From: a virus | Taxonomy: Duplodnaviria; Heunggongvirae; Uroviricota; Caudoviricetes | Length of the DNA stretch: 24,318 bases | Virus record (IMG/VR): IMGVR_UViG_2740892258_000019 | Reading direction: 5' to 3' (one strand) | Shown here: positions 3,372 to 19,555 of the stretch, one piece after another | Layout of the letters: every line of letters starts with the position of its first letter | Numbering within the stretch: position 1 is the first letter of the stretch | The notes under the pieces: generated by a model | What the model saw: only the letters and a program-made list of their open reading frames with translations | Database searches by the model: none | Told to the model about the DNA's origin: nothing | Translations under genes and position numbers: made by a program

Positions 3372-3817
3372 CAGTATTTCTCCAGTAAACCGTCACGACC
3401 GCCGAAAGTGGCCGGGCGACTGCGTACACGAAACTCGCCAGGCTCAGGCACATCTTTCTGAGTGGACGGCAGCCCCAGCGTGAGCCTGTTATCACGTAAC
3501 TCCCTGAGTTGCCGCAGCGCTTCTTTGTGGTCATCCTTCACCGTATCCGGGAGGTCACCTTCCGGGCGGCGGGCGTAGAGCCGGTAACGGACCAGCGTGA
3601 TGGCAATGTCCCGCAGAACAGTCGGTATCTCTGCCAGTGGCAGGATATAGCGTCCGCGCAGATGGGCATCAATCAGCTCGTCGGCATAGCGGATACAGCT
3701 GTCCACCACACGGGTATTCACTGTTGCAGGCGAGTCGAAGTCCATCTCTTCACTGGTGAGTTCGATAAGCGTCCGCTCCGGCACCTGCGCAAGCAAATCC
3801 TCCAGGGTGCAGTACAT
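3371..3817 (-). CDS. Mu gp36-like protein (DUF1320-type)
   Basis: Start re-chosen at internal ATG (MYCTLEDLL...) 1 bp after the stop of the upstream gene; the track ORF extends further 5-prime and overlaps that gene. Confidence 0.55.
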   Translation of the reverse strand: MYCTLEDLLAQVPERTLIELTSEEMDFDSPATVNTRVVDSCIRYADELIDAHLRGRYILPLAEIPTVLRDIAITLVRYRLYARRPEGDLPDTVKDDHKEALRQLRELRDNRLTLGLPSTQKDVPEPGEFRVRSRPATFGGRDGLLEKY

Positions 3818-3818
3818 G

Positions 3819-4157
3819 TCACACCCCGCGCAGGATACGAATGACGTCGCCTTCACCCCCGGCTTCATCAAGTGCAATACCACAGGATTTACCGTCGCCG
3901 GACTGCGGCACGGCTCTGGCCTGAGCATCTGACTGAACAGCCACACCACGGCTGACAGCGGCCCCGGCCTCGACAGCAATAATGCCCAGAACGCTCACCG
4001 GCGTGCTGTCGCCGGTAACAGCATCCACTTCGGCAACCCCGAGCGCTGCGGCACCGGCTTTACAGGGGGTATTATCTGCCCCGACAAAACGCTGCTGTGT
4101 CAGTGCGGCCCCTGCCGTTACGGTTGTGATCAGAATGACCTGCTGAGTGGTTCCCAT
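3819..4157 (-). CDS. Gly/Ala-rich small head protein (possible decoration/cement protein)
   Basis: 112-aa ORF directly downstream of the major capsid gene; low-complexity Ala/Gly/Val-rich sequence. Confidence 0.45.
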   Translation of the reverse strand: MGTTQQVILITTVTAGAALTQQRFVGADNTPCKAGAAALGVAEVDAVTGDSTPVSVLGIIAVEAGAAVSRGVAVQSDAQARAVPQSGDGKSCGIALDEAGGEGDVIRILRGV

Positions 4158-4166
4158 AACGCCTCC

Positions 4167-5120
4167 TTATTTACTGATACCGGTGATGAGATACCCGGCA
4201 TCGCCACCAACCACGGCGACTTTGTAGATATCGGTATAACGGCAGTACTTCACCTTGCCACCGGCTCCGTCGTATTTGTCAGCAACAGGCATCCCCTTAC
4301 GACGCAGGGTGTAGCCGAAGGACGGCTCGTTCTCGTCCGCGCTGTCCGCCCCGGGCTGCGGTTTGCCGACATAGTGCAGCATCAGGTTGTCTCCCCAGAT
4401 ATCCGCCGGCACGCTGTCCTTATCCATTGCCGCTTTCATGGACGGCAGGGAGACAGGCGCACCGATGACGATCTCTTCGATCTGAAAGAGGTCCTGCAGG
4501 ATTTCTGTGGTGATGCGCTTGCGTTCGTTGGCTCCGATGGCAGCCTGAAGTGCCGGATGGAACTTCAGCAGCGCCATCACGCCGGCACCCATGGTCATCA
4601 GGTTAGGACGCAGCCCCGTGGCCGTACGGACCGCTTCCATACCGGCTTCAATCACCCCGATGGGGTCCCCCTTACCACCGGCCCAGCGATCACTGGCTGT
4701 CAGTTTTTTAACGTGCCCGGTACGGTAGACCTTTTGATCCTGAGCCAGACGGGCGGCGATAAGTTCACGGCGCAGGTTCACGCCATTCGTGGCGCGACGG
4801 ATGGCCTTGCTCTCTTCGTTAAACATGGACTCCGCCTGTTCGCGGTAATCCACCGGTGCTGCCAGATCGTGTTCACCCAGCACCAGATCCAGTGTGCCGG
4901 TTTTCTCACGGACCAGAACATTGCTGTCCGCCCCGACGGCACGCTCAGTGTCATATTCCACAAAGGCGGTTTTCCCGAAGGTCGGCACACGCACGCCTTC
5001 CTTGTCCGTCAGCACGACGGGGAAAATACGTTCGCCAATGAATGCGGCATTTTTATAGCCTCGGGCGATACTGGTCAGTACCGGATCAACGACACGTTTA
5101 CCTTTTAAGTAATCAGACAT
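4167..5120 (-). CDS. major capsid protein (Mu gpT family)
   Basis: 317 aa, size and position (after I protease/scaffold) match Mu T; sequence pattern recalled as Mu-like major head subunit. Confidence 0.85.
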   Translation of the reverse strand: MSDYLKGKRVVDPVLTSIARGYKNAAFIGERIFPVVLTDKEGVRVPTFGKTAFVEYDTERAVGADSNVLVREKTGTLDLVLGEHDLAAPVDYREQAESMFNEESKAIRRATNGVNLRRELIAARLAQDQKVYRTGHVKKLTASDRWAGGKGDPIGVIEAGMEAVRTATGLRPNLMTMGAGVMALLKFHPALQAAIGANERKRITTEILQDLFQIEEIVIGAPVSLPSMKAAMDKDSVPADIWGDNLMLHYVGKPQPGADSADENEPSFGYTLRRKGMPVADKYDGAGGKVKYCRYTDIYKVAVVGGDAGYLITGISK

Positions 5121-5134
5121 GATTTCTCCTTAAA

Positions 5135-6250
5135 TTACAGGCAGCGTGCGACAGCAGCCTCATAGCTGATGCCTTCTTTTTTGGACAGGGCCACTGCTTT
5201 CTGATGCAGGGCCAGACGCTCAGGATCGGCTTCCGCAAACTCCGCCACATCCACCTTCACCGTGTCGCCGACACGCTCCTTTGTGGCCTGTTCGGCGAAA
5301 TTCATCACCGGCTCCCCGTCGGAGAGCAATGAACGGAAGGCGGTGGCCAGCGGCGTGCGGCTTTCCCCCTCAGCAAACTCCACCGGCTTGTCGCCACCGG
5401 CGACGGCATCCAGCAGGGCAACCACCACGGAGGAGGCGCGGGGAGCCAGACGCCCCTCTGCGACCAGTTTTTCTGCAAAGGCCACATTGTCCTTATGCAG
5501 TTGCTCCTGTCTGGCCTGTGCATCACGCGCATCGCGATCAGCAGCCTGCTGCTTCAGGCGGCGGTTCTCCTCCTGAAGGGCTTCAATCTCTTCTTTTGTC
5601 ATCGATGATTCCTCGTTACTTGCGGAAGACGGCACCTGGCCTGTCTCACTGAATTGTGCACCTGCTGCATCCTGCGACGGTGCGTCGCGGTACGCCTCTT
5701 CGCGCAGATTGTTGAGCTGCCATTCCGGCAGGACTTTTTCTGCTTCGTCCAGACTGAAGCGGGCGATCAGAAAATCGCGCAGCTTTCCCCACAGGGAGGC
5801 ATTCGTGATGGCCTGCCAGTCGGCGAACTCCACCACACCTTCTTCCTGCTCACTGAAGGACACCTGTTTCAGCCCCTTGACGGAAGGTGGCTGTGCCCCG
5901 AGAAAGCCCACATGGCGCAGGTAGAGCACGCCGGGCTTCGGATTGGACGGTGAATCCGGGAGGTAGAAAGAGGCGGACACTTTTTTGAATCGTCCGTTGG
6001 TGACCATCTCAGCAAACTGCGGGTCCAGCTGGGCAGGCTCTGCCATCAGATCGACGCCGCTGAGCGACAGGGCTTTCACCCAGCCCCACGCCGGGTCTTC
6101 CGTTCTGGGATGACCAATCACGAGTGGTGCTTCATGGACGGACGGGTCATAGGCTTTCACGCAGGCGGCAAGATCGTCTGGCGTGAACGGCAGTTTTTTG
6201 CCGTGCATATCGGTATGAGTACCGGCTTTAAAAATGTGAATGGCTGACAT
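5135..6250 (-). CDS. Mu I-like head maturation protease/scaffold protein
   Basis: 371 aa; N-terminal MSAIHIFKAGTHTDMHGKK...FTPDDL pattern typical of Mu-like prophage I protein; charged coiled-coil scaffold-like C-terminal half. Confidence 0.8.
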   Translation of the reverse strand: MSAIHIFKAGTHTDMHGKKLPFTPDDLAACVKAYDPSVHEAPLVIGHPRTEDPAWGWVKALSLSGVDLMAEPAQLDPQFAEMVTNGRFKKVSASFYLPDSPSNPKPGVLYLRHVGFLGAQPPSVKGLKQVSFSEQEEGVVEFADWQAITNASLWGKLRDFLIARFSLDEAEKVLPEWQLNNLREEAYRDAPSQDAAGAQFSETGQVPSSASNEESSMTKEEIEALQEENRRLKQQAADRDARDAQARQEQLHKDNVAFAEKLVAEGRLAPRASSVVVALLDAVAGGDKPVEFAEGESRTPLATAFRSLLSDGEPVMNFAEQATKERVGDTVKVDVAEFAEADPERLALHQKAVALSKKEGISYEAAVARCL

Positions 6251-6464
6251 TTTGCTGTCCCGCGTTATGTTGTCGGAGACAGTTTGTGAGAAATGCAGGC
6301 CCGGCGATTTTAATCTGCTTTAGAAAACATCAGGGGAGAAGGACAGGGAAAGCAATGCGGTGAACCGGAAGCGGTTATAAAACAGAGGCTGTAAAGCCTT
6401 TATAAAGGTAATACAGCCCCTCATTCGCTGGCAATGATAAATCACCCGCCTGAAGAGAGAAAAC
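6251..6464 (-). promoter_or_regulatory. intergenic leader upstream of gene I (candidate late promoter) containing a perfect 12-bp palindrome CCTTTATAAAGG at 6397-6408
   Basis: Only sizeable intergenic gap inside the head module; Mu has a C-activated late promoter upstream of I; palindrome read directly. Confidence 0.35.
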
Positions 6465-6923
6465 TCAGCGACGGGCCGCTGATTCAAGATGGCGGACAAT
6501 GGTATCGAGGATGGGGATTACCACTTCAGGCTGTAGTTCTCCATCCCCCGTCACCGGCAGGAACGGGCGGGCCGGAAGTTCAACAGACTCATTACGCCCC
6601 GTTTTACCCCCGAACTGGTGAATGGTACCGTAAACAACGTTGGTCCCCACAACAGCCTGCCGGTCGTCATGGTCGGTTGATACTGACCCCATCAGACGCC
6701 CGGTATCCTGCAGTGTCTGCCCGTCACGTTCTTCCGCTGCCAGCGAGGGCATCCACCCCGGACGCCCCTCATCAAGAAAGTTAAACTGTGTTTCCGCCAG
6801 CAGGGTTCCGGCGATTTTGCGCATCGCGGGCTCCAGGTCTGTGGCAGCCAGATCCAGCGCACGGAGGCTCCGGCGCAGGGATTTATCGTTAATGGTGATA
6901 CTGACCAGGTTATCGGAAGCCAT
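6465..6923 (-). CDS. virion morphogenesis protein (Mu gpG family)
   Basis: 152 aa; motif VVGTNVVYGTIHQFGG characteristic of Mu G-like proteins; coupled to F. Confidence 0.75.
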   Translation of the reverse strand: MASDNLVSITINDKSLRRSLRALDLAATDLEPAMRKIAGTLLAETQFNFLDEGRPGWMPSLAAEERDGQTLQDTGRLMGSVSTDHDDRQAVVGTNVVYGTIHQFGGKTGRNESVELPARPFLPVTGDGELQPEVVIPILDTIVRHLESAARR

Positions 6924-7747: not shown

Positions 7748-9245
7748 GCAGACGCCCCCAGATATTTGCCACAAAGAGAATGCGGGCCAGCCGTTCCTGC
7801 AGATCGTCCGTGTTCATCTGAGGGTAGAGCTCCGCCAGTTCGCCCAGCAGCTCAGACGGGTTAACCCCGTTTTCGACCCGCTTAAACAGAGGTGCCAGGA
7901 CGGGTTCCAGCGTGCCATTTAACACACCTCCGTTCATCAGAATGTCCAGCGCGTCGTCAAGCTGCTGCTGAGCCTGAATATCGGCATCAATCGCCTCGGC
8001 AAATGACAGCGGCAGCATGTTCTTCTCGCGTTCTGACGGTGGTGTCTCGTCAATATCGCCGTCCTGCAGCTGGTACTCACGCTTGAAGTATTGCGGGGTC
8101 AGACGCAGACCCGCCCGGGTGAGTTTTTCGTCGCGGGTGGCACGGGTGTCATCAATGGCCTCCTGTTCCCACATGGCCCAGACCGGACACGGCACATCGC
8201 CGAAGTTCAGGGTGACCACCGTTCTGATGACCTGATTCACTGCCGCCTGAATGATGTCCGCATCCGCATCGCGGATATCAGCCGTTACCTCCAGCCCGGC
8301 CTGTGCAGAGGCCTTGTTACTGTTCGCTTCCGTGGTCTGATTCTGACCGAGTAATGCAATGGAGATCTCACTGCGTGACAGCGTGATCAGCTCGCGGAAT
8401 ACCTCGCTGCTGTCCGCCTTGCCATCCGCGGCTTTGAGTTCGATGCTGCTGTCATCGGGGATGGCGGCCACCGCGTCCTCCACCATCTGCTCCATGGAGT
8501 CCAGCAGTTTTTCAATCTCTGCATCATTTGCACCCCTCGGGTGCTTACCGATCACCCATGGGGAGCCAAACTTTTCGGCAAAGCGGAGCCAGAATTTCAT
8601 CCCGCCTTTCTTGAAGGCGACCGGCCAGAAGCACATGGACAGGTCAGGGAAACCGTAAGGATTGTCATACGAGGCATCCTGTGCCGGCACCACGAATTTT
8701 GACGGTGACAGCAGCTCACCCTCCACACCCGCATCACGCGCCCGGAAGCGCAGGCAGTTGTCCGTATCAAACTGAAACCACTCAGGCGGTTTGCCGACAA
8801 TATCCGTCACCGCCCACGCCCTGACCGAACGGCCCCACATGATTTCACAGGGCTGATACCCGTAGAGCACGGCATCGCTCATCTCACCGATGATGCGGGA
8901 CAGATCCAGATCGTCGAGCATGTCGCGGATGAAACGGAAGACCCGGGCAGAAGCGTGACCGCGCTCCAGTCCACGCTCCAGTGATTTGAGCGCTGCTTTA
9001 CGTCTGCGGATACAGCCCCCGACCAGCGGGTCGGTGCGCAGTTCGCGGTAGATACGGATATCCCGTCCCTGAGCCTTGAGAATGGGATCAGGGTTGGGCA
9101 GGTACATTCCCAGAGCGTAAAAGTCGATGGCGCGACTGCGCGAGGCAATCTGCGCGGTCAGTGATGCAATCTGCGCGGTCAGTGATTTTTTGGGTTCGGT
9201 GAACGCCACGAACTCATCGGGTGAAACCCAGATACCTTTTGCCAT
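7728..9245 (-). CDS. portal protein (Mu gp29-like, DUF935 family)
   Basis: 505 aa between terminase and F; ATG overlaps the terminase stop (ATGA); carries a 7-aa tandem repeat SLTAQIA x2. Confidence 0.85.
   Translation of the reverse strand: MAKGIWVSPDEFVAFTEPKKSLTAQIASLTAQIASRSRAIDFYALGMYLPNPDPILKAQGRDIRIYRELRTDPLVGGCIRRRKAALKSLERGLERGHASARVFRFIRDMLDDLDLSRIIGEMSDAVLYGYQPCEIMWGRSVRAWAVTDIVGKPPEWFQFDTDNCLRFRARDAGVEGELLSPSKFVVPAQDASYDNPYGFPDLSMCFWPVAFKKGGMKFWLRFAEKFGSPWVIGKHPRGANDAEIEKLLDSMEQMVEDAVAAIPDDSSIELKAADGKADSSEVFRELITLSRSEISIALLGQNQTTEANSNKASAQAGLEVTADIRDADADIIQAAVNQVIRTVVTLNFGDVPCPVWAMWEQEAIDDTRATRDEKLTRAGLRLTPQYFKREYQLQDGDIDETPPSEREKNMLPLSFAEAIDADIQAQQQLDDALDILMNGGVLNGTLEPVLAPLFKRVENGVNPSELLGELAELYPQMNTDDLQERLARILFVANIWGRLHERDNG
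9145..9186. repeat. perfect 21-bp tandem duplication (2 copies) inside portal gene
   Basis: gcaatctgcgcggtcagtgat at 9145-9165 repeated exactly at 9166-9186. Confidence 0.9.
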
Positions 9246-10258
9246 CAGAATCCCTCCAGCATGCGGGCGGCTTCACGGCGGCGGCGCGAACGCGCCACCA
9301 CCGGCCCTGACGGTCCGTCAGTGGCGTTAATAGCCAGAAAACAGGCCCATGTACGGTCGGCGTGACCTGCTGCATCACTTTCCGCCACAAAGCGAGGCGC
9401 TCCGGTAGGTCCGGTGATCTTACGGAGTTTATGCAGATCACTGCGCAGTACCACATCTCCCGCCGGAATACGCAGGCGGCGGTCCTCAAACATCTCCCTG
9501 CCACGGGTCGCGAGGGTGAGCTTGTTCGGGCTGTTAAATATCACCCCCTCCACACGACTCCTGCCGTGGCGCTCCTGAGCATCTTCCACAGGCTTTTCCC
9601 CCATTCCTGTCTGATCCATACAGCAGCGCAGCACGCGATAACGGAAAAATACGTCATCCAGCAAAGCATCCTGCTCAGCAAAGGTGGCCCGTTTACGGGT
9701 GATGATTTCCCGGGTCCAGTAGACATCCCCCACCTGTTCAAGCACCCAGATCACAAACAGGTCATTACGGACAGCAATATCCACCCCCACAAAGCAGGGG
9801 CCACCCGTATAGTGCACCGGCAGTCCGGCAGCATCGTGCTCCACGCCGTCAATCAGTTCAAACGTCAGCCAGGCCGATGCCTCATCCAGCCACTTCAGTT
9901 CAAACTCCTGTGCCCAGGCGTCATCATCGTTGAGCGCCTGTCGCATCTGTGCAATGTCACGCGGAAGGCCGTCGCGCACGGCACGGTAAATATCCACGAT
10001 GTGACGTGACCAGACATTTTCAAGGGCGTTGCTGGTCATCAGTTCATAAAACTTGTTTCCCTTGCCGTTCGGCGTCGATGTCACACGCAGTCTGTAGCCG
10101 TTGGAAATGACCGGAAACAGGGCGGTCCAGATTTTGCGACTGTCGGCATGGAAGGCGAACTCATCCAGAAAGACGTTAGCCGCAAACCCACGTGCCGTGT
10201 CGGGATTTGCCGGCAGGGCCGTGATACGGGAGCCACCGGGTAACTCCACCTCAAGCAT
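9245..10258 (-). CDS. terminase large subunit, apparently 5-prime-truncated (Walker B, TSTPNG and nuclease motifs present; Walker A region absent)
   Basis: 337 aa; VFLDEFAF (Walker B-like) at residues ~28-35, TSTPNGKG motif, nuclease-like GVDIA...D; only 10 nt separate its ATG from the small-terminase stop and there is no SD. Confidence 0.7.
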   Translation of the reverse strand: MLEVELPGGSRITALPANPDTARGFAANVFLDEFAFHADSRKIWTALFPVISNGYRLRVTSTPNGKGNKFYELMTSNALENVWSRHIVDIYRAVRDGLPRDIAQMRQALNDDDAWAQEFELKWLDEASAWLTFELIDGVEHDAAGLPVHYTGGPCFVGVDIAVRNDLFVIWVLEQVGDVYWTREIITRKRATFAEQDALLDDVFFRYRVLRCCMDQTGMGEKPVEDAQERHGRSRVEGVIFNSPNKLTLATRGREMFEDRRLRIPAGDVVLRSDLHKLRKITGPTGAPRFVAESDAAGHADRTWACFLAINATDGPSGPVVARSRRRREAARMLEGF

Positions 10259-10268
10259 GGTGCTGCTG

Positions 10269-12104: not shown

Positions 12105-12603
12105 AACTGCTGCCTCCCCATGTGAGATATCGCGGTGCCAGTTCGCGCAGGATGCGCTGCGGATAATGGCGGTTCTCCCGCCAGCTGGCCGCATTGCGTC
12201 CGGCATTCACCGTGGCGACATGTCCGAACCAGCGGGTGCTGTCCAGCCCCTGCTGCGAGGCCAGCCGTTTGTCCCGCTGTACCCAGCCCAGACCACCGTT
12301 ATAGCCTGACAGCGTCATGGCCATACGCTCGCAGTCACTGGCGGCGCTGACGCGTTGCCACAGCCAGCGGTCATAGCTGACCAGCGCCCGGATGGCCCAC
12401 GCCGGATTAAACGGTTCACGGCTGTTAAGCCCCGGCATCAGCTGACTTATCCAGTCAGCGGTGGTGGGCATAAACTGCGCCAGTCCCTGAGCGCCAGCCG
12501 GCGAGACCGCATCAGGTCGCCAGCCGCTTTCCTGATGCAGCTGCGCGGCGAAGTCGGCCACCGGCGCAGACAGTCCCCATTCAAGCCGGGCATTACGGAT
12601 CAC
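12088..12603 (-). CDS. endolysin catalytic portion (lytic transglycosylase, SLT-like motifs HQESGW / GLAQFMP / YNGG); gene split by upstream 56-bp duplication
   Basis: 171-aa ORF with only a GTG start; reading frame continues upstream into duplicated sequence until a stop created by the duplication. Confidence 0.65.
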   Translation of the reverse strand: MIRNARLEWGLSAPVADFAAQLHQESGWRPDAVSPAGAQGLAQFMPTTADWISQLMPGLNSREPFNPAWAIRALVSYDRWLWQRVSAASDCERMAMTLSGYNGGLGWVQRDKRLASQQGLDSTRWFGHVATVNAGRNAASWRENRHYPQRILRELAPRYLTWGGSSCVASG

Positions 12604-12708
12604 ATCATCGCGATACTGCAGCGCAACCTGCGGAGGCTGCGCTGCGCATGCCGGATCACATCATCGCGATACTGCAGCGCAACCTGCGGAGGCTGCGCTG
12701 CGCATGCC
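12597..12708. repeat. perfect 56-bp tandem duplication (2 copies) at the junction of two endolysin ORF fragments
   Basis: ggatcacatcatcgcgatactgcagcgcaacctgcggaggctgcgctgcgcatgcc at 12597-12652 repeated exactly at 12653-12708. Confidence 0.9.
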
Positions 12709-13484: not shown

Positions 13485-14255
13485 ATGAAAATGCAGACAT
13501 TACCCATCGTTCCATGGATTGGTGGCAAACGCCGCCTTGCAAAACACATCCTGCCGCTGTTTCCGGCGCATGAATGTTATGTGGAGCCGTTTTGTGGGGC
13601 AGCAGCGCTCTATTTTCTTAAGGTACCCGGCAAGATCGAAGTCATTAATGATATCAACGGTGAGCTGGTGAACCTGTATCGGGTGGTAAAACATCATCTG
13701 GAAGAATTTGTACGCCAGTTCAAATGGGCGCTGGTCAGCCGGCAGATCTACAAATGGCTGCAGATCACCCCGGAAGAAACACTGACGGATATCCAGCGTG
13801 CAGCACGGTTCTACTACCTTCAGAAGCAGGCGTTTGGGGGCAAGGTGGCGGAGCACAGCTTTGGTACCTCCACCATATCCCCGCCACGCTTCAACCTGCT
13901 GCGTATTGAAGAAGAACTGTCAGCGGCACACCTGCGGCTTTCCAGAACGGTCATAGAACACATGGACTGGCAACAGTGCATAGAACGATATGATCGCCCG
14001 CATACGTTGTTCTACTGTGACCCTCCATACTGGGGAACGGAAGGTTATGGTGTGGAGTTCGGACTAGAAAATTATGATCATATGGCAGATTTAGCACGCA
14101 GGATCAAAGGGAAGATGATTATATCGGTGAACGATATCCCGGAAATGCGGCAGGCATTCAACGGTCTAAATATTCAGTCGGTTGATATCAGCTACAACCT
14201 CAAGATCACTGGCAAATCCAGTCGCAAGAAGGAACTCATTATCCTCAACTTTTGA
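13485..14255 (+). CDS. Dam-family N6-adenine DNA methyltransferase (orphan)
   Basis: 256 aa with N-terminal PWIGGKRRL (AdoMet motif) and catalytic DPPY motif (FYCDPPYWG); no adjacent nuclease-like gene recognised. Confidence 0.85.
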   Translation: MKMQTLPIVPWIGGKRRLAKHILPLFPAHECYVEPFCGAAALYFLKVPGKIEVINDINGELVNLYRVVKHHLEEFVRQFKWALVSRQIYKWLQITPEETLTDIQRAARFYYLQKQAFGGKVAEHSFGTSTISPPRFNLLRIEEELSAAHLRLSRTVIEHMDWQQCIERYDRPHTLFYCDPPYWGTEGYGVEFGLENYDHMADLARRIKGKMIISVNDIPEMRQAFNGLNIQSVDISYNLKITGKSSRKKELIILNF

Positions 14256-15450
14256 CCGAATAGTAAGACTTCATGCAGTGAATCAAGTACTGCATGAAGT
14301 CAAGGGCTGGTTTTGTGTACCAAAAATAAACAGTGATAGCGGTAATAATTCCCATAACTAGAACACCACGTATAATCCAGAACGTACGTTTCTGCGTGTC
14401 TAGTCGCGCAGAAATACTGCTAAATACACCAGCCACGTCATCTTTAATGAAGGAATATTCCTTATTAATCTGTTTTTCTTTGTATTCAATTTCTTCGCCT
14501 AAGGCCTTTATAGATTGCATCTGGTTCGAAAGTGCCAGCCAGATTAACGTTGCAGCAAAAATGCATCCCAGAAGAATTATTGTGTTTGTTATCCCTTGGC
14601 CTGACCATTTCGTAGCCACTTTGAATTGGGTAGCTACGATAACAGAGGCAACAGGAATGCCAAGTATATGGTTCTGGATATCTGAAAACGCTTTGTGGAT
14701 TTTACCCATTTCTTCGACTTTTGCAGCACGCAGTTGATCCATTACTTTGTCATAAGAGAATCCAGAAGAGTAGATACGATACCCTTTCAGAAACTTTTCA
14801 TGCAGACGCTGAATATTGTCCAGTAAATAAGCGAATACTAGAGGTGAATCAATTCCATCACTAACTGCTTGAATACTTTCAATCAGAATATCTAGCTTCT
14901 GATCCTTATGGGTATCATCATTGAAACAAGCTATAAGGTTATCAAGATACTCCCTTTGCAAATTTTGTACATTTTCTGCAGCGAAGTGCGGTAATAGCTT
15001 GATAACTTCTTTTTTCAGAAAAACTAACTGACAAGTTGAGTTATCAAAGTAGGCCGCGGCCTCTTTTAGCAGGTTAACGAACTCGAGAATCTTCCGGTAG
15101 TTGCTGATGAAAACGGGGATATCTTCATCATCATTACGAAATTTTGTTTCTAGGATGAAGTAATTAGCTGGCTCAAGGCACTGATGCTTTGGAGCATTTA
15201 GCAATTTTTCATGGGTGGAAAACACAAGTCCCAGTCCACTCCGTGGTGACGTCACACGTAGGATGATCGTGTTACCTGGAGCGATAGTGCCTGTATCAAT
15301 AGAAAGACCATATTCACGAGGATCATCAAGCAAAGTATCAACCAGATCACAATCGGACTGATCTAAGAGCAACAGCGAACCGACACGAAACCCCTCTTGG
15401 AATTCCATACGACGATACAGAGCTGTCAGCATCTCAAATGAAATCGCCAC
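14245..15450 (-). CDS. 401-aa protein with large cytoplasmic N-domain and two C-terminal transmembrane helices; second gene of repressor-linked cargo pair
   Basis: Low-GC ORF; TM segments ITNTIILLGCIFAATLIWLAL and FWIIRGVLVMGIITAITVYFW; 2-bp gap after upstream gene; no known catalytic motif. Confidence 0.7.
   Translation of the reverse strand: MAISFEMLTALYRRMEFQEGFRVGSLLLLDQSDCDLVDTLLDDPREYGLSIDTGTIAPGNTIILRVTSPRSGLGLVFSTHEKLLNAPKHQCLEPANYFILETKFRNDDEDIPVFISNYRKILEFVNLLKEAAAYFDNSTCQLVFLKKEVIKLLPHFAAENVQNLQREYLDNLIACFNDDTHKDQKLDILIESIQAVSDGIDSPLVFAYLLDNIQRLHEKFLKGYRIYSSGFSYDKVMDQLRAAKVEEMGKIHKAFSDIQNHILGIPVASVIVATQFKVATKWSGQGITNTIILLGCIFAATLIWLALSNQMQSIKALGEEIEYKEKQINKEYSFIKDDVAGVFSSISARLDTQKRTFWIIRGVLVMGIITAITVYFWYTKPALDFMQYLIHCMKSYYSVKS
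14268..14300. terminator. 12-bp perfect inverted repeat hairpin at the convergence of dam and the cargo cassette
   Basis: acttcatgcagt-gaatcaagt-actgcatgaagt; no clear U-tract; lies within the last codons of the minus-strand gene. Confidence 0.35.
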
Positions 15451-15452
15451 GA

Positions 15453-16460
15453 TTAAACCTCAGTCATCCACATTTCCCTAAATTCTTCAGGTACATTACG
15501 TAGGGTGATAATATTTGTTTCCGGATCATAATCAATATAGCCTTCAGTTTTCCCTTCCCGGTCAAACTTAAGTTCCCAATATTTAGACTTGCCTTTAAAA
15601 GATACCAGAGCCCGAATGACTCGACCATCAGGAACGAAGCCATCCGATAACTCCAACTCTTCAGCAGCAAGTTTACCAGATAACTCCTCGGGAGCCTGGG
15701 GCCAAATGGCATTAACAAGGGTTTCAAGACTAAGTGGTTCACCAGCCTTACTTAGTGCATGTAAGTGTTCAAACGCACTCTTAAGAAATGCATCTTTTTC
15801 AGCGCCGTCAAGTCCTTTCTCTGCCGCAAATGCTTTTAAAACGTCACGTAACTTTTCAGACTCTCGTTTGGCGATTAAGACATCATTACAGCCTAGGAAC
15901 TGTTTAAAATAGTTTGAAACATTACCTTGCCCCTTAAGAAAACTGATATAGCGCTCTGCGCCACTTTCCCACGCGGTTAAGTCAATGCGCCCAGCCATAC
16001 GCAGCTTAGCAATATCAAGATAGGTACTATCTTGGATGTTAAAATCATCTGTGACAGTGGACCCAATGGTAGCGCTTACAATAGCTATCAACAGGTGTTC
16101 ATTGTGTCCTATCACGATATTTGCAAAAAGAACATAACCACCAGTAGCCATGTTTTCTCGCTGAGAACGTTCCGTCAGGTGATGCATCATTCGGCAGGAA
16201 CTTTGGTAGAAATCATCAACACCTTCGAGAAAGTCCCCAGCCATTCGTTCCATAGGATAGTTATCCGTATCGCCTTCAAAATAGCCATAACCTTTACCTG
16301 TGCGTCCTGCATATTTTGCACAAATATCGTTTATAAGGCGCTGAGAGGCTTCAGTAACTAGACCTTCTTCAGGACTCAATCTCTCAGAAGCGTCTCCATT
16401 TTGTTGTTTGTCTAAAATGTGAACTACAACGTGTTTAACTTCAATGGTCTGCTCAGACAT
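15453..16460 (-). CDS. NdpA/YejK-like nucleoid-associated protein family (NA37-like) homolog; first gene of cargo pair
   Basis: 335 aa (same length as E. coli YejK); N-terminal KHVVVHIL, GKGYGYF, central GGYVLF, IDLTAWE...YISFLKG and C-terminal YDPETNIITL pattern match my recollection of the NdpA family; SD AAGGTGGA upstream. Confidence 0.6.
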   Translation of the reverse strand: MSEQTIEVKHVVVHILDKQQNGDASERLSPEEGLVTEASQRLINDICAKYAGRTGKGYGYFEGDTDNYPMERMAGDFLEGVDDFYQSSCRMMHHLTERSQRENMATGGYVLFANIVIGHNEHLLIAIVSATIGSTVTDDFNIQDSTYLDIAKLRMAGRIDLTAWESGAERYISFLKGQGNVSNYFKQFLGCNDVLIAKRESEKLRDVLKAFAAEKGLDGAEKDAFLKSAFEHLHALSKAGEPLSLETLVNAIWPQAPEELSGKLAAEELELSDGFVPDGRVIRALVSFKGKSKYWELKFDREGKTEGYIDYDPETNIITLRNVPEEFREMWMTEV

Positions 16461-16530
16461 TGGCTATCCACCTTATTTTTTATTGCTTAATGGCAAATAA
16501 TTTCTGCTATATGTTCTCGTTAGGAACACA

Positions 16531-16938
16531 TTAACCCACATTTTTTAACCGCTCAATCGTTGCGGATAATTCCTTCAGTTGTTTTTCCATCTCAATCACA
16601 CGCTGTTTTTCTTCAGCGCCTCGCATGAGATCTCGCCGAACCTCAGGATCTAACTGGTTTAGAAGTTCAAGCATTTTAAGGTCTGACGGGCTGAATTGAT
16701 GTTGTGTTGGTACAGCAACAATTTCTTTAGATGGAATATGTTCTTTACCGGTAAGTAGCCAATCGATTGATACACCCAAATGGGTACTTAGCGCAACAAG
16801 AGCCTCTGCGTTTGGTTCTCTCTCTCCACGCAAATAGTTTTGAAGTGAGCGATATGGAATTTTTGATAAGTCAGATAATGCCTTTATTGTCATGCCATTA
16901 GCATCCATCACTTCACGCAATCTCTCTTTTGTACTCAT
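16531..16938 (-). CDS. prophage repressor, HTH XRE/Cro-CI family
   Basis: Start re-chosen at internal ATG (MSTKERLREVMDANGMTIKALSDLSKIPYRSLQNYLRGER...); divergent from ner; low GC; hydrophobic N-terminal track extension looks non-coding. Confidence 0.75.
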   Translation of the reverse strand: MSTKERLREVMDANGMTIKALSDLSKIPYRSLQNYLRGEREPNAEALVALSTHLGVSIDWLLTGKEHIPSKEIVAVPTQHQFSPSDLKMLELLNQLDPEVRRDLMRGAEEKQRVIEMEKQLKELSATIERLKNVG

Positions 16939-17026
16939 TTGAACATATCTCAATTTGACACACTCATTTGGGTGTGTACAATAGACCCAATAGAGTACAT
17001 CATAACCTAACAGGAACACGGTGCAT
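16939..17026. promoter_or_regulatory. divergent repressor/ner promoter-operator region with ACACAC-N8-GTGTGT inverted repeat (16958-16977)
   Basis: 88-bp AT-rich gap between divergently transcribed repressor and ner; repeat read directly. Confidence 0.45.
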
Positions 17027-17251
17027 ATGAACAAACAACAAGTTCGGGCACGGCTGGTTGAACGAGGCAGTAGCTTGCGCCAGTTCGCGCTTAACGCGGG
17101 CTATGAACCACGAACAGTCACCCAGGCAGTCAGTCGCTGGGCTGGTAAAAGTGAACTACCTCGCGGTCGTTTGACTTATCGGATTTTGCGAGATCTATCG
17201 GTTGCAATAGGTAAAGAAGTTACCCCCGGTATCCTTAAGGAGGCGTCATGA
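17027..17251 (+). CDS. ner: Ner-like DNA-binding regulator (Ner/Nlp family)
   Basis: 74 aa from ATG with AGGAA SD; pattern RARLVERGSSLRQFALNAGYEPRTVTQAVSRWAGK resembles Mu Ner/Nlp; stop overlaps the A start (ATGA). Confidence 0.65.
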   Translation: MNKQQVRARLVERGSSLRQFALNAGYEPRTVTQAVSRWAGKSELPRGRLTYRILRDLSVAIGKEVTPGILKEAS

Positions 17252-18363
17252 ATAAACCAAATACATCAAGCTCAGGTATCCGTATTTTGCGCGTTCTTAA
17301 GGCCTTACGTGGCCACGCTTTGAACGGTGTTTCTAACGGGGAACTAGCGGTTGCACTGCACGAATCACCGGCAAACATCAACGGCAGATTGATGCCTCGC
17401 TCTGCACGCTTTACTACCTGAGCAATGGACACAAAGGGCTGCAGGTGATGGACAGCGCGAAATTCTACAAGAACAAGCCCGCTAACCTTGCCCGTATCGC
17501 CAGTGACCGCGTGTGGAGTTATGAGATTACCGACCATGCCAGCGGCTGGATTTACGTTGAGTATGTGACGGGTGCGGAATCCGGTGAGAACCTGTGTTCT
17601 GTGCTTATCAACGCCATGCAGGAGCGTGGCGGCGCAGACGTGCTGCACGGCGTGCCAAAAATACTCTATCTCGACCCCGGCTCGGCAAACACCGCGGGTA
17701 TGACGAAAAACATGTGCCGCTCACTGGGCATTGACCTGATAGCGCACAAGCCGCATAACGCCCGCGCCACCGGACAGGTGGAAAAGGCGCGGGACATTAT
17801 CGAACGCAAGCTGGAGCCGGGTCTGAAGTTCCGGCCGGTTCACAGTCTGGAAGAACTCAACGCGCTGGCCGCGAAATGGCGCAGCCACTTTAACGCCACG
17901 GCTGTTCACAGCCGCCACGGTAAAACCCGCACGGATATCTGGCTGAAGATTACTGCTGAGCAGCTGAAAAAAGCGCCTTCCGTTGAGGTATGTGGTTACC
18001 GGTACAGACAACGCCGCAGATGCAGCCGCCGCACGCAAGGCGAAGGCGCTGCCGTTCGGCGGGCGGCTTGACCCGTATAAACATATCGACGACACCACAC
18101 TTCCGGCCTATATGCCGAAGCGTGGTCAGGCCTCTGACGTACGCGGGCCGCGCACTGAACAACGTCCCATGACTCATGTGGAGGCCGCGAAAGCCCTGCG
18201 CGATAAGTTCAGCGCCGACGGCCTTACCTGGACGCCGGAACATTACCGCCAGTTAACGGCACAGTACCCGGACGGCGTACCGGAAGCCGCACTGGATGAA
18301 GTCATGGCCACGCTGACCACACCGGCCAGCAGCAGTGTTATCAGCATTGTTAACGGCAACTGA
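17248..18363 (+). pseudogene. Mu-type DDE transposase A, disrupted: 57-codon N-terminal fragment, DDE-core ORF and C-terminal ORF in three different frames
   Basis: Strong SD AAGGAGG + ATG at 17248 but stop after 57 codons; DDE-core motifs restart at 17445 in another frame; frame changes again near 17985-18000; locus codes at most ~370 aa vs ~660 for MuA. Confidence 0.6.
17445..18071 (+). CDS. DDE transposase catalytic-core fragment (rve-like: ITDHAS ... LYLDPGSANT ... GQVEKARD)
   Basis: 208-aa ORF with D, D, E-containing motifs at the spacing expected of Mu-type transposase cores; ends in Arg-rich out-of-frame tail. Confidence 0.5.
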   Translation: MMDSAKFYKNKPANLARIASDRVWSYEITDHASGWIYVEYVTGAESGENLCSVLINAMQERGGADVLHGVPKILYLDPGSANTAGMTKNMCRSLGIDLIAHKPHNARATGQVEKARDIIERKLEPGLKFRPVHSLEELNALAAKWRSHFNATAVHSRHGKTRTDIWLKITAEQLKKAPSVEVCGYRYRQRRRCSRRTQGEGAAVRRAA

Positions 18364-18373
18364 GGAGGGAAAC

Positions 18374-19555
18374 ATGCTGGTACTGAAGCAGCAACTGAAA
18401 GAGGCCCGTATTCCACAGGCGGTGGTGGCGAGAGCTGTCGATGTTTCTGAGGCCACGCTGGCCCAGATTGTGAATCATAACGCGTGGCCCCGCACCAGCC
18501 CCGGAGAAGTGCGCCGGCGTCTTGCGTCCTGGCTGGAAAGTCAGGGGATTGATACAACGAAGAGTTTTGATGCTGTACAGGGCGCGGCCACGCCCCGTAC
18601 AGCGGGTACCACAGATAAAACGAGCCTCAGTGAGGAAGAGAATATGTTACTCAAAAAACAGGTGTTATTTCCAGCAACCAAAAAAGCGTTTGGTCTTTTC
18701 CGTGACCCGTTCGCCGACGAAGCCATGCAGGGTTCTGATGATGTGTTCACCACCCCGGATATTCGCTACGTGCGTGAGGCGTTGTACCAGACAGCCCGTC
18801 ATGGTGGGTTTATGGCCGTCATCGGTGAGTCCGGTGCGGGTAAATCCACGCTGCGCCGCGACCTGACTGAACGTATCAACCGCGAGAATGCGCCGGTAAT
18901 TGTTATCGAGCCATACATCATCGCTATGGAAGACAACGATGTGAAAGGGAAAACCCTGAAGGCAGCAGCGATTGCCGAAGCCATTATCAGTACCATCGCA
19001 CCACTGGAAAGCATCAGACGCAGTCAGGACGCCCGCTTTCGCCAGTTGCATCGCGTCCTGAAAGACAGCAGCCAGGCGGGGTTCAGCCACGTTCTGGTGA
19101 TTGAGGAGGCCCACAGTCTGCCCATTCCGACACTGAAACACCTCAAACGGAAACACCTCAAACGCTTTTTTGAGCTGGAGTCCGGTTTCAAAAAACTGCT
19201 GTCCATCGTGCTGATTGGCCAGCCGGAACTGGCGACAAAACTGTCTGAACGCAATATGGAAGTCCGTGAAGTCGTTCAGCGCTGTGAGGTGGTCGAACTT
19301 CTGCCTCTGGACAATAACCTTGAAGAGTTTCTGACGTTCAAACTGCAACGGGCCGGTAAACAACTGACGGACATTATGGACGCCAGCGCAGTGGATGCCA
19401 TACGTGCCCGCCTGAGCAATCCGGGAAGTCATCGTAAAAATATGGTCAGCCTGCTGTATCCGCTGGCCGTCAGTAACCTGGTAATAGCCGCCATGAATCT
19501 GGCCGCTGAAATCGGGGTTCCACAGGTCAACGCTGACGTTGTCAAAGGGGTTTAA
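18374..19555 (+). CDS. Mu B-like transposition ATPase (AAA+; Walker A GESGAGKST, Walker B VLVIEEAH)
   Basis: Start at ATG after GAGGAGGG; 393 aa; contains 5-aa tandem repeat KHLKR x2. Confidence 0.8.
   Translation: MLVLKQQLKEARIPQAVVARAVDVSEATLAQIVNHNAWPRTSPGEVRRRLASWLESQGIDTTKSFDAVQGAATPRTAGTTDKTSLSEEENMLLKKQVLFPATKKAFGLFRDPFADEAMQGSDDVFTTPDIRYVREALYQTARHGGFMAVIGESGAGKSTLRRDLTERINRENAPVIVIEPYIIAMEDNDVKGKTLKAAAIAEAIISTIAPLESIRRSQDARFRQLHRVLKDSSQAGFSHVLVIEEAHSLPIPTLKHLKRKHLKRFFELESGFKKLLSIVLIGQPELATKLSERNMEVREVVQRCEVVELLPLDNNLEEFLTFKLQRAGKQLTDIMDASAVDAIRARLSNPGSHRKNMVSLLYPLAVSNLVIAAMNLAAEIGVPQVNADVVKGV
19135..19164. repeat. perfect 15-bp tandem duplication (2 copies), in frame, inside B gene
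   Basis: gaaacacctcaaacg at 19135-19149 repeated exactly at 19150-19164. Confidence 0.9.

Follow-up and report, generated by a model that had tools for sequence, protein, structure and literature searches.

The interval from 17,027 to 18,363 of the window, by which we mean the whole 24,318-nt stretch of DNA that was analysed, covers the first genes of an early operon. Divergent from this operon lies a gene for a cI-type repressor of 135 amino acids (16531..16938, minus strand; gene call and Pfam HTH_3), the equivalent of BcepMu gp17, which in alignment is 100% identical to its counterpart in the prophage of E. coli N61, the closest relative. The operon itself opens on the plus strand with a small ner-like helix-turn-helix gene of 74 amino acids (17027..17251) that belongs with the BcepMu gp16 family. 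Its match to the NCBIfam BcepMu_gp16 model, at 29.1 bits, falls under the cut-off of 34, its match to Pfam HTH_35 (E 0.007) is likewise under cut-off, and its similarity to Mu Ner (33% over 42 amino acids, pairwise E 5e-4) is weak but real. An AAGGAGG motif and the ATG at 17248, overlapping the TGA of this gene, begin a first ORF (17248-17421) that stops after 57 codons. A second ORF (17445-18071) follows in another frame, with a GTG at 17445 and an ATG at 17448, and a third, encoding 126 amino acids, occupies the remaining frame at 17983-18363, directly 5' of a gene for an ExeA/AAA_22-type transposition ATPase of 393 amino acids (18374..19555, plus strand, ATG at 18374), which is the equivalent of BcepMu gp08 and the 'B' analogue of the operon. 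An earlier note on this DNA, made from its letters alone, had read the three ORFs as a transposase A gene reduced to three out-of-frame fragments. Its coordinates for the strong Shine-Dalgarno sequence and overlapping ATG, the stop after 57 codons and the changes of frame are all confirmed, and the DDE-core motifs that it saw in the ORF from 17445 correspond to a match to the Pfam family rve.

Alignment to the N61 prophage, which served as our reference (N61 coordinates are given as in the compared sequence), resolves the composition of the three ORFs. Window positions 13500-17382 and 17383-17993 are each 100% identical to N61, and from 17993 on the window is identical to it apart from one 15-nt insertion. 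At the junction 17382..17383, positions 3884-5451 of the N61 stretch are missing without microhomology (a deletion of 1,568 bp, Δ1568), and at 17993..17994 positions 6063-6382 are missing with an ambiguity of 1 nt (320 bp, Δ320). Δ1568 takes out codons 46-102 of a gene for a 102-amino acid IclR-type winged-helix protein (the BcepMu gp12 equivalent), a whole DUF3102 gene of 303 codons and codons 1-156 of the transposase gene tnpA, and places the second position of transposase codon 157 directly after winged-helix codon 45, out of frame. The intact winged-helix protein matches Pfam HTH_IclR at residues 12-57 as well as phrog_1368; its stump in the window (17248..17382, plus strand) is 100% identical to N61 positions 3749-3883. 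The plus-strand segment that follows, 17383..17993, runs from position 2 of tnpA codon 157 to codon 360, contains the rve/DDE core (Pfam rve) and is 100% identical to N61 positions 5452-6062. Δ320 then removes tnpA codons 361-466 and a further 2 nt and shifts the frame, so that the C-terminal part of the protein, residues 468-589 with the stop, lies in the third frame (17994..18363, plus strand; identical to N61 positions 6383-6752). There are thus two transposase fragments at the locus rather than the three originally proposed, the first ORF being made up of the 45 winged-helix codons and 12 codons of transposase DNA read in the wrong frame.

What is left of the transposase amounts to residues 158-360 and 468-589, or 325 of 589. 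The earlier suggestion that its N-terminal part is absent is borne out by the loss of residues 1-157; residues 361-466 and the whole DUF3102 gene are gone as well. Using alignment to the retroviral integrase core and the columns that are invariant in six phage homologues, we mapped the catalytic triad to D160 (codon 17391-17393), D254 (17673-17675) and E290 (17781-17783). The D160 codon survives, with a TAA (17334) before it and the first start codon (17445) after it, and those of D254 and E290 lie inside the 17445-18071 ORF. By frame analysis no canonical translation product includes D160, and the complete triad is found in one frame in intact relatives only. A structure profile search made for the lost 361-466 segment matched only retroviral integrase cores, and these covered the D254-E290 region. 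Judged from its reading frames, the locus as written is unable to make an active transposase, and the text of the window therefore does not provide for autonomous transposition.

Hundreds of E. coli prophages match the region, as do the phages PhiKM, Phi06_2974 B and Klebsiella KP12, and wherever the match is full-length, 3.1 kb of the window is spread, in three pieces, over ~5.0 kb of the relative. The annotated gene order of N61 is repressor, 74-amino acid gene, 102-amino acid helix-turn-helix gene, 303-amino acid DUF3102 gene, 589-amino acid "integrase catalytic domain" gene, 388-amino acid ExeA-family ATPase gene, and then Gam and downstream genes. The order gp16-like, gp12-like, gp10-like, tnpA and ExeA-type ATPase is present in N61, PhiKM, BcepMu and all ten of ten other loci; in the window the gp12-like gene is truncated and the gp10-like gene absent, both from Δ1568. 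In the family, the 102-amino acid IclR-type winged-helix gene and a DUF3102 gene of ~300 codons always stand between the ner-like gene and the transposase gene (N61 stretch 3749-4979; 1994-3483 in the relative L009). To our knowledge neither of these two genes has a role in transposition or a counterpart in Mu.

The relationships of the transposase point in the same direction as the gene order. The intact E. coli protein of 589 amino acids shows 68.5% identity to BcepMu gp09, in an alignment covering 98% of the protein, and 56.6% identity to the phage B3 transposase, and PhiKM, a close E. coli phage relative, is classified in Bcepmuvirus. Pfam recognizes rve alone in the intact transposase (residues 152-282) and AAA_22 alone in the ATPase, and the Mu-specific families (end-binding helix-turn-helix, Mu core and C-terminal) were found neither in the intact protein nor in the window fragment. 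When the intact homologue was compared with MuA by BLASTP the best E value was 0.47, and an hhalign comparison of MuA with the profile of the family gave a probability of 0.4% (E 0.14), the match of columns 325-455 to MuA 444-578 not being significant. No Mu record occurred among 69 phage hits obtained by tblastn, and direct comparison of the ATPase with MuB gave no significant similarity. The TnpA of BcepMu has itself been described as unrelated to MuA and as a distant member of the Tn552-IS1604 family (PMC2771037; PMC2628397). On these sequence comparisons we assign the element to the BcepMu-type transposable prophages and not to Mu. The proper yardstick for the locus is consequently the 589-amino acid BcepMu-type TnpA and not MuA (~660 amino acids), the standard used in the earlier note, which had also advised that alignment to MuA and related transposases would map the missing segments; the N61 relative did serve to map Δ1568 and Δ320, but MuA could not be aligned significantly.

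Members of this prophage family are present in 641 of the 5,426 complete E. coli genomes (~12%), a single genome carrying as many as 3 copies, and the transposition module is intact in 626 of the 641 genomes with a match. All ten loci that we inspected were intact and lay at ten different chromosomal sites; two of them come from the same genome and one lies within a lambdoid prophage, a diversity of sites that is consistent with active random transposition. Each of the 69 phage homologues is likewise a single full-length transposase gene.

Over the whole 24.3 kb, the window differs from N61 by six indels and by zero true substitutions. In addition to Δ1568 and Δ320, the Mu-type portal gene (DUF935) contains a perfect 21-bp tandem duplication at 9145-9186, in which GCAATCTGCGCGGTCAGTGAT occurs twice, and encodes 505 instead of 498 amino acids. 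The large terminase gene has lost 289 bp at a blunt junction at 10262 (Δ289), which breaks the frame after codon 4 and leaves an ORF of 337 codons from an internal ATG at 10258, the intact protein having 438 residues. In the gene for an SLT transglycosylase (endolysin) a perfect 56-bp tandem duplication (12596-12708) causes a frameshift that yields ORFs of 83 and 171 codons. Nor is the ATPase gene untouched, as had been thought: a perfect 15-bp tandem duplication at 19135-19164 repeats KHLKR and lengthens the protein from 388 to 393 amino acids, the repeated stretch beginning 8 residues past the end of Walker B (VLVIEEAH, 240-247).

The prophage is not the only DNA affected. Outside the window, ~3.9 kb past the right end of the prophage, a blunt deletion of 160 bp (Δ160; contig CVOH01000150.1, between 20085 and 20086 of the extended contig stretch) splits the host gene ydcJ into ORFs of 171 and 213 codons, and apart from this deletion 5,041 bp of host flank match ATCC 11775 at 100% identity. 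Because a lesion of the same type hits ydcJ, the lesions are not specific to the prophage; six fall in 24.3 kb of prophage and one in 5.0 kb of host flank (29.6 kb of assembly covered), a density of about one per 4-5 kb that is similar in phage and host DNA. At none of the breakpoints, whether in the prophage or in ydcJ, was there microhomology of 2 nt or more, and slippage between direct repeats was rejected as their source on this ground. The chromosomal site of the prophage differs from that in N61, and the two elements must therefore have integrated independently, although they are base-identical.

The contig that carries these lesions belongs to the assembly GCA_001245225.1 of E. coli K1 A192PP (PMC5054322), a rat-passaged derivative of A192. 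Exact look-up of the 57-amino acid ORF product returned CVOH01000150.1 and no other contig, and among ~15 billion proteins the same holds for the 207-amino acid product, the 393-amino acid B protein, the 505-amino acid portal and the 171-amino acid YdcJ fragment. The 337-amino acid terminase ORF had one other match, where the gene runs off the end of a Logan contig on which the portal is intact. The Logan contig SRR30310103_1580, which comes from a run that looks unrelated, has its first letters no more than 2 nt from the Δ289 junction (compared with window position 10260) and encodes the intact portal of 498 amino acids; this start is probably a coincidence, given that the phage is carried by more than 15,000 blocks. 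Neither the Δ1568 junction nor the Δ160 junction in ydcJ occurs among the 5,426 complete E. coli genomes.

The insertion site provides a marker by which other sequences of the same lineage can be recognized. The prophage sits in gapC, and about 200 bp past the end of the window the truncated gene encodes a fusion protein of 169 amino acids that ends in 3-4 phage-end codons (17255-17764 of the contig stretch that runs past the window end). This protein was found on eight contigs in NCBI and Logan, counting the deposited one, the longest being 60,282 bp. Look-up of the 53-amino acid gene at the phage end led to other insertion sites only. Since the phage-gapC junction is absent from the 5,426 complete genomes, the eight contigs are probably data sets of the same (A192) lineage. 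By protein look-up none of the five lesion-specific proteins came from the seven other contigs with the marker, even the ydcJ fragment, which lies ~3 kb from it. At its other end, the deposited contig opens within the prophage: its first letter falls between the tape-measure gene and the tail-assembly genes, and window position 1 follows 59 nt later (at about contig position 60). The break in the assembly thus lies inside the element, whose left part is on another contig.

We consider it most likely that the fragmented transposase is the product of errors in the deposited draft assembly and not of biological decay, and we infer this from the anatomy of the lesions and their confinement to one contig, which are matters of direct observation. 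Two blocks of 1,568 and 320 bp are missing from the early operon in the deposited A192PP contig, which gives rise to the three short ORFs, and the two gaps belong to a contig-wide group of seven or more lesions, all of them either blunt deletions lacking microhomology or perfect tandem duplications; the cause would be the mis-joining or mis-closing of contig ends while the assembly was being built, rather than mutation in the bacterium. Six structural changes with zero substitutions are not what neutral decay produces. Extrapolated from a small sample of seven lesions in 29.6 kb, the observed density would correspond to some 1,200 lesions genome-wide, most of them disruptive, a number that would not be credible as real mutation because the strain is fully virulent and 357 essential genes have been mapped in it (PMC5847654). 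The homologue counts reported for A192PP imply ~5,580 predicted proteins as compared with ~5,030 in its close relative IHE3034 (PMC5054322), and the ~550 additional proteins would be consistent with widespread splitting of genes. The parent draft was assembled with Velvet from MiSeq Nextera XT reads (PMC5115809). A simple de Bruijn path error would not give blunt joins that lack both N's and shared k-mers; these presuppose a step of scaffolding or gap closing. It is probable, then, that the actual A192PP prophage has an intact transposition module like its relatives. The earlier conclusion that the element can no longer transpose autonomously is accurate for the sequence as written, but as a statement about a decayed element it is probably wrong, the lesions being present in no other assembly. 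Sequencing errors that restore one long ORF of normal length, which the earlier note had itself named as an outcome against its interpretation, come close to the explanation we favour, with the difference that 1.6 and 0.3 kb are missing and not single bases.

Other accounts of the same sequence deserve consideration. The deletions might be real, the prophage having lost 1,568 and 320 bp in A192PP or its parent A192 after integration in gapC, and it is in this sense that the deposited sequence reads. We think this unlikely, and equally doubt its corollary, that the element is a cryptic prophage unable to transpose, package or lyse, with terminase, portal, endolysin and B damaged besides the transposase. 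Mu-type lysogens classically escape killing by losing the transposase, and the damaged genes do include the killing functions transposase, B and endolysin. However, decay targeted to the prophage, or selection against its killing functions, is weakened as an explanation by the lesions in ydcJ, portal and terminase: the first is of a like kind in a host gene outside the prophage, and the host draws no selective advantage from the other two. The 24 kb moreover hold six indels and zero substitutions, the opposite of normal decay, and no other assembly has any of the lesions although the insertion site is found on eight contigs. A192, A192P, A192PP and four mutants have all been sequenced, and the authors report that the series A192, A192P and A192PP differs by just four SNPs and by no structural variant (PMC5115809), which also argues against real loss. 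If all seven blunt lesions were nevertheless real, they would form a local, substitution-free cluster of ~30 kb within a transposable prophage and the DNA beside it, in a K1 strain that produces colibactin, and could be the scars of repeated double-strand breaks, joined by a microhomology-independent end joining that was possibly helped by the Ku-like Gam protein of the prophage; we regard such a history as very improbable.

Also very improbable is that the lesions are real only in a sub-population of phage copies, for instance defective genomes arising from spontaneous replicative transposition, and that the assembler followed these. A contig that starts inside the prophage would fit a tangled assembly graph, a Logan contig of another run begins no more than 2 nt from the Δ289 junction, and related prophages reach three copies per genome. 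Yet the ydcJ deletion lies in host and not phage DNA, a coincidence such as that of the Logan contig is expected by chance with more than 15,000 phage-bearing blocks, and we saw no direct sign of heterogeneity. We give practically no credence to the last alternative, that a MuA-like gene of ~660 codons lies here in three pieces through small frameshifts, or that the gene is functional while split or subject to programmed frameshifting. Three successive ORFs in three frames, the first with a good Shine-Dalgarno sequence, speak for it, but the first of them comes from another gene and no significant similarity to MuA exists, nor is Mu represented among the 69 phage hits. Small frameshifts or sequencing slips at ~17420-17445 and 17985-18000 were rejected because the alignment is short of 1,568 and 320 bp and not of 1-2 bases, and programmed frameshifting or a naturally split transposase because the relatives carry one gene of 589 codons, single and full-length in 69 of 69 phage homologues and in the E. 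coli copies (626 of 641).

With assembly error as the preferred explanation, there is nothing unusual about the locus, which belongs to a very common family of Bcepmuvirus-like prophages of E. coli, and even with real lesions it would count as a further defective prophage and be unremarkable as such. The case is a caution, in that a story of a transposition-dead, domesticated prophage would here rest on a draft contig with about one apparent structural error per 4 kb. Users of A192PP as a reference, for example in the published TraDIS mapping, may face split or truncated genes that are absent from the strain.

Set against known systems, the lesions share with the indel and mis-join errors of short-read drafts their occurrence in one deposited draft only, their indifference to genes and reading frame, their presence in phage and host DNA alike and their perfect flanks; they differ in the blunt joins without N's or shared k-mers, which call for the additional scaffolding or gap-closing step. 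The likeness to cryptic Mu-type prophages lies in the dead transposase and damaged late genes of the sequence as written, but those prophages also carry substitutions and have lesions in common with their relatives, whereas the window shows neither, and here there is a host lesion as well. In its general plan the operon resembles the early operon of Mu, with a repressor, a small Ner-type regulator, a DDE transposase, an ATPase partner, Gam and, further on, Mor and GemA; in contrast to Mu, the transposase of the family has 589 amino acids where MuA has 663, and two additional genes stand between ner and the transposase gene. Compared with BcepMu, the module of the window is short of 1,888 bp, its gp12-like gene being cut at codon 45, its gp10-like gene missing and its transposase without residues 1-157 and 361-467; in the intact E. 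coli relative the genes stand in the BcepMu order: gp17 repressor, gp16, gp12, gp10 (DUF3102-like), the Tn552/IS1604 rve transposase gp09, and gp08.
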